A DNA stretch of 64,000 nucleotides from Peribolospora baueri (GCA_029717555.1 JAMDHS010000002.1:434001-498000), one strand, 5' to 3'; shown: positions 58,601 to 60,267, counted from the first letter of the stretch. Notes: generated by a model not told the origin, from the letters alone. Numbers and translations: made by a program.

Positions 58601-58849
58601 ATTATGGACGGCGCGTAAAACACACGAACCGGTTCGTCGCGACAATCCAGAACGGAGGGCTCAGCGGTGACCTACCACCTGCCATGGCCAAGGTCGACGG
58701 TGCCCGCCCCGCCTTGGCCACCTTTGCGGACTGCACCACTCAGGGGATAAGCGTGGAGTACAACGAATACAGTACAACGAAATGGCGCAAGCGTTCTGAT
58801 AGGATTCACAATCCAGCACTGGTATTTACGTATGGTGACTGCGGCGACA
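58601..58849 (+). repeat. Left arm of a long imperfect inverted repeat
   Basis: ATTATGGACG-GCGCGTAAAACACACGAACCGG...GACAATCCAGAACGGAGGGCTC...GCGTGGAGTAC...CAGTACAACGAAATGGCGCAAGCGTTCTGATAGGATTCACA matches the reverse complement of 60055-60267. Confidence 0.9.
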
Positions 58850-59364
58850 GCGCCCTCTTGTCTGAGCCGTCTGTTTCTTCCGCCCGTCGAGCTGCGCCGC
58901 ACTGCATCGCTTCGTTTCGCCTGCACGCACATCCCGCGCCATGCGATTGTCTGTCTATGCACTCAAAGTGTTGGTCGCCGTTACCTTAACGTGGCGTCCT
59001 ACGTTTTGCGTTCAGCGTCCGACCGACCTTGTGCTTGTGCTTGTGCTTGTCGCCCAAGCCCACCATCGATCCCAGCCCGTGCGACAACCAGCCAGCAGTC
59101 CGTCGCCGCGTCGCATGCGCGCAGGCCATGCACAAGATGACGGACACCACGCTCGGCGCGAAGGGCAGATAGGCCAGACCAGACCAGACTGTCTAAAGAC
59201 GTCTTCCGTACTCGCACACCGCATGCCTCGTCCATGCTTGTCACCATGTGATGCCTTTCGCCGACGGCGCCGACGGGACTCGGGACAAGACGAGACGAGA
59301 CGAGACGAGACAAGGCAGACGAGTCAGATGCCTGTCCGGCGACACCGTCTACCAAGGCCTAAGA

Positions 59365-59371
59365 TATAAAA
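59365..59371 (+). promoter_or_regulatory. TATA box of the cassette gene
   Basis: TATAAAA 140 nt upstream of the ATG at 59505, which lies in CACCATG context. Confidence 0.6.
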
Positions 59372-59504
59372 CGAGCCCCTCCCCCCTCCGCCACGTTATC
59401 TGACCATTTCCCCAAACTTCATCGCTCCAGTTTCACGCTCCCAATCCTTCAGCGTCTCTCCATCTACGAAATCGTCACGACAAGCAAAAGCGTTCGTGCT
59501 CACC

Positions 59505-59909
59505 ATGTCCTGCCACAACTCGTACTGCTGCAAAATTATCCAGAACGGGGACAAGGTGGCCTACAACACGGATCCGAGCGGCAAGCCGTTGCTGAACCCG
59601 ACGAGCATGGGCTTTGCCAATGGCTCCTCCTACCCCGATACCATGGGATCCCTTTCCAAGCCCAACAACAATAACGGTGACGACGCGTCTGCCGGCCAGA
59701 CCCCTGCGGCGAACGTCAAGAAAGGCACCGTCATTCGTCTCCTCACGGACGGCGTAGTGGGAGGTACGGCGACCAACACGATGCTCTGGAGCGCCGAGAG
59801 CCCGAGGTACGTCGTCGACGCCGACGACGGCAACGGACGCGCCATCGTCCCCGCCTCCGCCATCGTCGCCACCGCCGCTCCCGACCTGCCCGACCATTTG
59901 GACGCTTGA
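59505..59909 (+). CDS. Small intronless protein (134 aa), possible Hva1/DUF2945 Tudor-like domain
   Basis: Strong C/G third-position bias. IQNGDKVAYN...KKGTVIRLLT...AESPRYVVDADDG resembles the GDxVxW/Y...GxV...PxYxV pattern of Hva1-type Tudor domains. The N-terminus is MSCHNSYCC. Confidence 0.65.
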   Translation: MSCHNSYCCKIIQNGDKVAYNTDPSGKPLLNPTSMGFANGSSYPDTMGSLSKPNNNNGDDASAGQTPAANVKKGTVIRLLTDGVVGGTATNTMLWSAESPRYVVDADDGNGRAIVPASAIVATAAPDLPDHLDA

Positions 59910-60054
59910 ACGTCAGCGCCGCCCCAGTCCCATCCTTTCTCTCCTCCTTCCCTTGACCCCTTCGCCTTCGCCCTCGCCCTTTGCGCAAGCGAGCCTCCCC
60001 CCGTCGTCGCCAGTGCGACGCCTTGCCCTTTTTTTTCTTTCTCTACATTCTTAA

Positions 60055-60267
60055 TGTCGCTCGCAGTGTGGAGTGCGCTCGTTCGTAGATACCGGCGCTA
60101 GGACTGTGAATCCTATCAGAATGCTTGCGCAATTTCGTTGTACTGTACTCCACGCAGAGACTGCGGCCCGAAAGACCGGCAGACGGTGGGTCCACCGTCG
60201 AGCCCTCCGTTCCGGATTGTCGTGACAAACGGTACCGGTTCGAGTGTTTTACGCGCTCGTCCGTAAT
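60055..60267 (-). repeat. Right arm of the long imperfect inverted repeat
   Basis: The reverse complement reads ATTACGGACGAGCGCGTAAAACACTCGAACCGG...GACAATCCGGAACGGAGGGCTC...GCGTGGAGTACAGTACAACGAAATTGCGCAAGCATTCTGATAGGATTCACA. Confidence 0.9.

Follow-up and report, generated by a model that had tools for sequence, protein, structure and literature searches.

The FF inverted repeat on chromosome XIV of Saccharomyces has, in the account given in PMC9731477, 4.2-kb arms that carry sporulation genes and enclose a 24-kb spacer. The repeat lies at the same boundaries in related species, and its arms are made alike within each lineage but diverge from those of other lineages. For this pattern, gene conversion was proposed, and about 4% of the conversions were said to resolve as crossovers, which invert the spacer (PMC9731477). 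Both orientations were demonstrated, the arms were homogeneous in all eight species, and the same account describes orientation as invisible to short-read assemblies if the arms are near-identical. The yeast mating-type flip/flop FF1 also consists of one inverted repeat around a gene-bearing segment and, as described in PMC6692504, involves two MAT gene sets over 8-61 kb, quoted arms of 2 kb and usually a silencing centromere or telomere.

Much shorter inverted repeats are homogenised by template switching, in which one arm overwrites the other and the spacer may invert in the same event (PMC8604942, PMC5453318); the cases given in PMC8604942 have arms of 7-16 bp and spacers of up to 70 bp. 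When a segment is flipped by a staggered-break inversion or a template switch, non-repetitive DNA at its ends is left duplicated in inverted orientation. Inverted duplications of non-repetitive DNA mark 17 of the 29 Drosophila inversions in PMC1885836. In Pack-MULEs, long imperfect terminal arms of 150-250 nt surround low-copy DNA related to that of the host (PMC5861414, PMC10401008), and the terminal inverted repeats (TIRs), as described in PMC5861414, belong to repetitive families, are common to autonomous elements and come with target-site duplications (TSDs) of 8-11 bp.

Here, a short gene cassette bounded by inverted repeats was analysed within a 64,000-nt stretch of DNA (the window), which is eukaryotic as judged from its spliceosomal introns and a nearby Mcl1/Ctf4 domain. 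Our preferred reading, to which we give a probability of about 0.57, is that the cassette is not a mobile element: ordinary non-coding DNA, ~230-250 bp of it, would have been duplicated in inverted orientation at this one locus, on either side of a small gene already resident there, and re-perfected episodically. A preliminary description of the window had reported imperfect inverted arms enclosing ~1.2 kb, a complete intronless 134-aa gene with its own TATA box, a position ~100 nt after a tRNA-Leu gene, and the absence of a transposase and of a clear TSD. All of these observations were borne out by the results given below.

The left arm (58601-58849, plus strand, 249 nt) and the right arm (60055-60267, minus strand, 213 nt) are both non-coding. 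In the local alignment of the left arm with the reverse complement of the right arm, 170 of 194 aligned columns were identical (87.6%), and the alignment score was 201, compared with a mean of 49.5 (sd 12.9) and a maximum of 96.5 for 184 random window pairs of the same spacing. The arm pair was also the strongest inverted match in the self-comparison of the window (E 6e-16 and 8e-15), and the other matches were simple repeats or far weaker. Two better blocks, 58601-58683 (81%) and 58765-58830 (88%), lie on either side of an indel-rich middle, and the longest exact run common to the arms is 17 nt. In addition to several indels, the arms differ by 24 mismatches, of which 19 are transitions. Duplicated genes were not found in the arms, since the reading frames shift between them and no protein or RNA family matched; no Rfam family came near threshold for the arms as structured RNA, and the folding z-scores of their RNA were 0.72 (left) and -1.79 (right).

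The arms did not behave as members of a repeat family. Used as a blastn query against the 22.7-Mb assembly, each arm matched only itself and its partner, and searches with three core arm motifs at <=3 mismatches recovered only the two arms and one 3-mismatch site without extension; these copy counts are lower bounds, and the own-genome DNA search skips very common words. The copy-number comparison suggested in the preliminary description thus gave two copies in one inverted pair only, and no third arm copy was found in the genome by blastn or motif search. The stretch occurs in four runs from a single study, of which X1 and X2 are from organism A and X3 and X4 from organism B. In the organism A runs it lies in one 22,009-nt contig identical to the window, and these runs are possible sources of the window and so are not independent of it. 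The read-derived depth in organism A was that of single-copy DNA in both arm-only bins (112.4 and 95.3, at 80% likeness), and the right flank (60268-61500) is single-copy.

The cassette begins 95 nt behind an intron-containing tRNA-Leu(TAA) gene (58385-58505, plus strand), which lies outside the cassette, is single-copy in the genome and has a 33-nt intron. It was found by ARAGORN with introns allowed, is absent from the default scan, which is intron-blind, and is placed by Rfam at 58385-58502 (44.7 bits, E 3.6e-7). A T6 run directly behind it (58507-58512, plus strand) would be expected to serve as its RNA polymerase III terminator. On the left, a minus-strand gene (57359-58234) is transcribed away from the tRNA and has a donor-like site after 287 nt. 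Neither a Pfam match over cut-off nor a homologue was found for it, and a search for syntenic outgroups with its first exon gave 0 of 220 candidates among longer proteins; it may resemble Tma17/Adc17. On the right, the minus-strand gene at 61497-63728 is a low-complexity open reading frame of 743 aa without interruption, for which no Pfam family was recovered and one hydrophobic stretch is predicted, close to the N-terminus. The statement that most genes of the locus have introns, spot-checked on these two neighbours, was therefore supported by the donor-like site of the left one and not by the uninterrupted right one.

The enclosed gene, P0001, is an intronless orphan gene of 134 aa (59505-59909, plus strand) with a GC3 of 0.83. 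Its TATA box, TATAAAA (59365-59371, plus strand), lies 140 nt before the ATG and is the only match to TATA(A/T)A on either strand in 58501-60400. This motif and about 500 nt upstream of the gene lie within the segment. A (GACGA)n microsatellite at 59284-59317 (plus strand) is common to other loci. Only one paralogue of P0001 was found in the genome, a 118-aa gene on contig C538 (L005:1242-1796; 52% over 42 aa, E 2e-9). It contains two GT-AG introns of 88 and 110 nt within the aligned coding sequence, both of which are absent from P0001, whether by loss there or by gain in the paralogue. The paralogue has a TATA-like TTTAAAA about 100 nt upstream, and neither an inverted repeat nor a tRNA was found in the 9.9 kb around it. 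In a 49-codon conserved block of the two genes, the identities at codon positions 1, 2 and 3 were 28, 37 and 22. Because divergence is concentrated at third positions, the gene looks real, and this pattern together with the GC3 looks as would be expected under protein-level selection. No DNA-level match between P0001 and its paralogue was found, which places their duplication far before the divergence of the arms. P0001 resembles a retrogene in being without the introns of its paralogue. Of the other marks of a retrogene, a poly(A) remnant is absent, the tract after P0001 being T-rich and not A-rich, as is a TSD; age would erase both.

Homologues of P0001 outside this genome were not found. 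Word-seeded searches among proteins of near length gave 21 candidates for P0001 (0 at E<=0.01) and 4 for the middle exon of the paralogue (0 at E<=0.1), and none was confirmed among 73 metagenome and 63 viral candidate stretches. HMMER with the two-sequence alignment against 1.84 billion representatives returned 5 matches, all of them long proteins that score through 3-14 short repeated stretches and none below 1e-10, and these matches were treated as spurious. Three of the five were scanned, giving one protein with weak Tudor/HEWD matches and one mucin-binding repeat protein. The best scores in the ESM Atlas, 0.81 and 0.83, are leads only, and Pfam gave no match for P0001. The confidence of the two AlphaFold models was too low for use (mean pLDDT 29.7 and 47.1); from its sequence pattern, P0001 may have a small SH3/Tudor-like domain or fold. 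An assignment to Hva1_TUDOR (PF11160) was rejected, as the profile matches contig C19 and neither P0001 nor the paralogue. The C19 match (38632-39379; L014, L015) is over the Pfam cut-off, with a second weak one ~500 nt away, and is unrelated to P0001. Taken as a whole, P0001 looks like a real, old, lineage-restricted gene of a two-member orphan family. We propose that it is an older, intron-free paralogue under protein-level selection, and nothing indicates that it needs the arms.

In addition to P0001, the cassette contains an 84-nt piece (59063-59146, plus strand) with a counterpart inside an intron of the topoisomerase I gene of contig C33 (L007:1483-1558); this intron is 207 nt long, compared with 112 nt for another in the same gene. 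Identity between the two pieces is 83% (63 of 76 aligned positions). No copies other than these two were found, both stop matching at ACA, and the cassette copy lies in a region that has coverage in organism B as well. As a snoRNA, the piece had no Rfam match near threshold, unremarkable folding and no H box by eye. A captured fragment, which would fit a history of capture and count against the preferred reading, is one possible source of the piece; others are a templated insertion and a small intronic RNA that has gone unrecognised.

The contigs of organism B indicate exchange between the arms. Organism B, the sole relative compared, is a sister about 3-4% diverged; X3 differed from the window at 124 of ~4,630 positions on the left flank and at 100 of ~3,000 on the right, and the cassette was present at the same site in both organism B runs. 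In the organism B assembly, the break points coincide with the arms: contigs cover the left flank up to 58633, the interior from 58801 to 60114 and the right flank from 60228 onwards. One contig supplies both arms, 229 nt long at a depth of 188.4 in X3 and 175 nt at 137.8 in X4, which corresponds to 1.94 and 1.87 times the single-copy depth, and the two flanks and both ends of the interior overlap this one contig by 30 bases, as expected. Each 31-mer of the Logan contigs is distinct, and their depth is the mean k-mer abundance (10.1101/2024.07.30.605881), and it follows from this and from the contig topology that the B arms share nearly all of their 31-mers. The organism A arms, with their longest exact run of 17 nt, share no 31-mer and were not collapsed in X1 or X2. 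The comparison covered 40 of 311 substitution rows, 12 of 60 indel rows and 32 of 148 pieces. When the organism B depth bins were rebuilt from these pieces, they matched the observed values within 0.6 (64.3/63.7, 72.1/71.6, 148.8/148.7 and 95.6/95.6, rebuilt/observed), so no unlisted contig carries a second version of the arm.

The near-identical tract corresponds to 58611-58830 (plus strand, X3 record 18) and pairs with 60085-60256. It differs from the left arm of organism A at 10 of 220 positions (4.5%) and by 9 inserted bases. Unconverted B arms would be expected to show about 9-10 differences, and the chance of at most one is 0.0005-0.002. Since the B arms are near-identical over 175-229 bp, as seen through simplified, variant-collapsing contigs in which a single-base difference can be hidden, and yet stand 4.5% away from the A left arm, the contig topology and depth show that the arms were homogenised in the lineage of B after the split from A.

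The arm contig of X4 is without 54 nt that are present in X3; the absent segment lies at 58661-58710 (plus strand). The loss reflects either a second homogenisation involving both arms or a deletion in one arm with the longer path dropped by the assembler; the depth ratio of X4 is compatible with both, as it lies below 2.0 and above the value of 1.79 that a deletion in one arm would give. The middle of the left arm (58684-58720) holds an inverted repeat of 8 nt, which makes a small internal hairpin, as well as an internal duplication of ~33 nt that is degenerate, and sequence was lost there in both the right arm of organism A and X4. The flank just right of the right arm is also indel-prone: organism B is without 126 nt (window 60515-60640), and 85 nt (window 60683-60767) are replaced by 127 other letters.

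The rate at which the arm changes resembles that of its surroundings. In three neighbouring non-coding pieces (X3 records 19 and 20 and the first piece of 22, coding-containing pieces being left out), B differed from A at 32 of 820 positions (3.9%), which is close to the value for the arm (Fisher p 0.70). The arm thus appears to change at the non-coding background rate with no sign of constraint, in a test of little power. The two arms of organism A differ from each other at 21 of 165 positions (12.7%), or 13 of 121 in the four cleanest blocks, which exceeds the difference between the A left arm and B (Fisher p 0.004 for all positions and 0.04 for the cleanest blocks). The history is therefore more complex than one of arms that matched when A and B parted. 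In one version, differences were already present then and B replaced mainly right-arm sequence by left-arm sequence; in the other, decay was faster in the right arm of A. A 5-nt insertion common to the B arm and the A right arm fits both versions. Accordingly, the arms are more alike within a genome than between taxa in B and not in A, where they stand 11-13% apart. The inverted repeat itself lies at conserved boundaries in both organisms (two taxa, one study), and selection could be an alternative cause of this persistence. An outgroup without the arms was not found among the metagenome and viral candidates, and the tRNA pattern had 0 matches in metagenome contigs.

These observations suggest a sequence of events for the preferred reading, an inverted duplication around a resident gene. 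The arms would have arisen once, before the split of A and B, from a small inversion or a replication template switch. After the split, the arms of B would have been made near-identical, probably by gene conversion or template switching between arms that lie 1.2 kb apart, and a minority of such exchanges would also invert the gene together with its own promoter, so that the cassette is probably still flippable in B. Since promoter and gene would flip together, little effect on expression is expected. Mismatch repair limits exchange between diverged sequences, as described in PMC6511840, and the cassette of A, whose arms have diverged and acquired several indels, is for that reason probably frozen. 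The invertible segment considered in the preliminary description is thereby upheld in part: the arms exchanged sequence in the sister lineage by a process that also inverts such segments, whereas the arms of A are probably too diverged for easy recombination. For the origin of the arms we infer a local duplication, and an ancient transposon origin would look similar.

Such an origin, which we regard as unlikely, would make the cassette a fossil Pack-type non-autonomous TIR element that brought the gene and the topoisomerase I intron piece beside the tRNA, whose family and TSD disappeared with age and whose arms are now subject to conversion like those of any inverted repeat. The lengths of both arms agree with the long-TIR criterion of about 150-250 nt for Pack-MULE and MULE elements and with the 150-250 nt given for MuDR TIRs in PMC10401008. 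The interior pieces are related to two unlinked loci, the C538 paralogue and the C33 intron; the cassette lies 95 nt from a tRNA; and a TA dinucleotide is placed symmetrically at the outer arm ends, a 2-nt symmetric match being expected by chance. Against this, a third arm copy was not found, nor was a TSD of 8-11 bp: none was present within 12 nt of the ends when 5-7 nt were required to match exactly, 8-9 nt with one mismatch and 9-11 nt with two. No transposase or other meaningful family was recovered at E<=0.1 by Pfam in 9 stop-free frames overlapping the arms, and PF10551, the MULE family searched, had 0 matches at E<=0.01 in the genome, whose assembly may be incomplete. Gene capture at the DNA level is expected to keep introns, and P0001 lacks both introns of the paralogue as well as any DNA-level match to it. 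Moreover, the divergence of the two arms is small beside that between P0001 and its only paralogue, and organism B has the cassette at the same site and not an empty one. Membership in the Pack/MULE-like elements, put forward in the preliminary description, was consequently not supported, since the arms form no repeat family and the divergence between gene and paralogue far exceeds that of the arms, and the comparison of orthologous loci for an empty site that it suggested returned an occupied one.

Functional versions of the inverted duplication are less probable. We consider it doubtful that the locus is a miniature flip/flop in which recurrent conversion maintains the identity of non-coding arms of ~230 bp while the orphan gene toggles its orientation beside the tRNA, with orientation or fold-back RNA setting expression, live in B and frozen in A. 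A selected switch, in which recombination between the arms inverts the gene and changes its expression relative to the tRNA or to neighbouring chromatin, active in B and degenerate in A, appears slightly more doubtful still. The arms do lie at the same boundaries in two organisms and are near-identical in B, and the 54-nt difference between X4 and X3, if it affects both arms, would be a second homogenisation. The promoter, however, lies inside the segment with about 500 nt of upstream DNA and would move with the gene; the arm changes at background rate; and the arms of A have decayed while the reading frame stayed intact. The known yeast flip/flop switches, as described in PMC6692504, depend on arms of kilobase size, on a pair of alternative gene sets and on silencing by a centromere or telomere. 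The inverted form was not seen in the contigs, where the collapsed arms of B hide orientation.

It is highly improbable that the cassette acts as a source of hairpin RNA, with RNA transcribed across the two arms pairing with itself and giving rise to small RNAs that control P0001. The predicted duplex between the arms is strong (-288.8 kcal/mol, compared with -127.8 +/- 22.7 kcal/mol for 60 random pairs), and a Piwi-domain match (PF02171, 50.1 bits, over cut-off) is present on contig C175, at exon level and with one stop inside. However, the stem would consist of the arms, so that the small RNAs would not match the coding sequence; the T6 run lies between the tRNA and the left arm, and the only TATA motif is inside; and the arm sequence shows no constraint, with 24 mismatches and several indels in A. 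In the hairpin RNA named in the preliminary description, the pairing of the arms and the Piwi-domain gene stood, and the T6 run after the tRNA spoke against transcription into the arms.

There is also a very small chance that the identity of the B arms is an artefact of a variant-collapsing assembly and that they are as diverged as those of A. Logan contigs do collapse variation after simplification of the SPAdes type, as described in 10.1101/2024.07.30.605881, and the ratio of 1.87 in X4 falls between 2.0 and the 1.79 of a one-arm deletion. Arms as diverged as those of A, however, share no 31-mer, and such arms were left uncollapsed in X1 and X2. Collapsed-away k-mers should not add depth, given that depth is a mean k-mer abundance, and the ratio of 1.94 in X3 fits 0-1 hidden substitutions, with 1.84 expected for one and 1.69 for two. 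The composite element of the preliminary description, a dispersed repeat with two copies placed by chance on the two sides of the gene, is scarcely credible, because no third arm copy was found, arm depth is exactly single-copy in A and exactly two-copy in B, and the motif searches gave no family, even with own-genome counts that are lower bounds where very common words are skipped.

Compared with the systems described at the outset, the cassette resembles Pack-MULEs in its long imperfect terminal arms around low-copy host-related DNA, but none of their repetitive families, TSDs or ties to autonomous elements was found here. It resembles the yeast FF1 system in having one inverted repeat around a gene-bearing segment, and differs from it in enclosing one orphan gene with its own promoter, no known silencer and no alternative gene sets. 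As at the staggered-break inversion breakpoints of PMC1885836, inverted duplicates of non-repetitive DNA lie at both ends of the segment and a transposon is not needed; those duplicates are known from large Drosophila inversions, whereas for this cassette the ancestral single-copy arrangement was not retrieved. The homogenisation in B also recalls the template-switch cases of PMC8604942. Since the cassette arms are >10 times and the spacer ~20 times longer than in those cases, recombinational conversion is at least as likely.

No description of a basidiomycete nuclear gene cassette smaller than 2 kb and flanked by homogenised arms was found in literature that was partially covered. On the preferred reading, the locus represents a natural experiment: two sister lineages carry one short inverted repeat in different states, near-perfect in B and with arms 11-13% diverged in A. 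The smallest non-coding inverted repeat that still shows concerted evolution and inversion, as well as the divergence at which freezing occurs, thereby becomes measurable. Such cassettes also call for caution, as they collapse in short-read assemblies and mask orientation polymorphism. Only if orientation controlled expression would the cassette be a eukaryotic DNA-inversion switch, one of very small size and outside the mating-type systems. The nearest likeness is to the Saccharomyces FF repeat of PMC9731477, with which the cassette shares conserved boundaries in related organisms, homogenisation within one lineage and divergence between lineages, and an orientation hidden from short-read assembly. 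The scale differs, with ~230-bp non-coding arms, a 1.2-kb spacer and one gene here, and homogeneous arms are seen in one of two organisms and from contigs only. The cassette may therefore be viewed, in part, as working like an FF-type recurrently homogenised inverted repeat in miniature, with arms that are free of genes.
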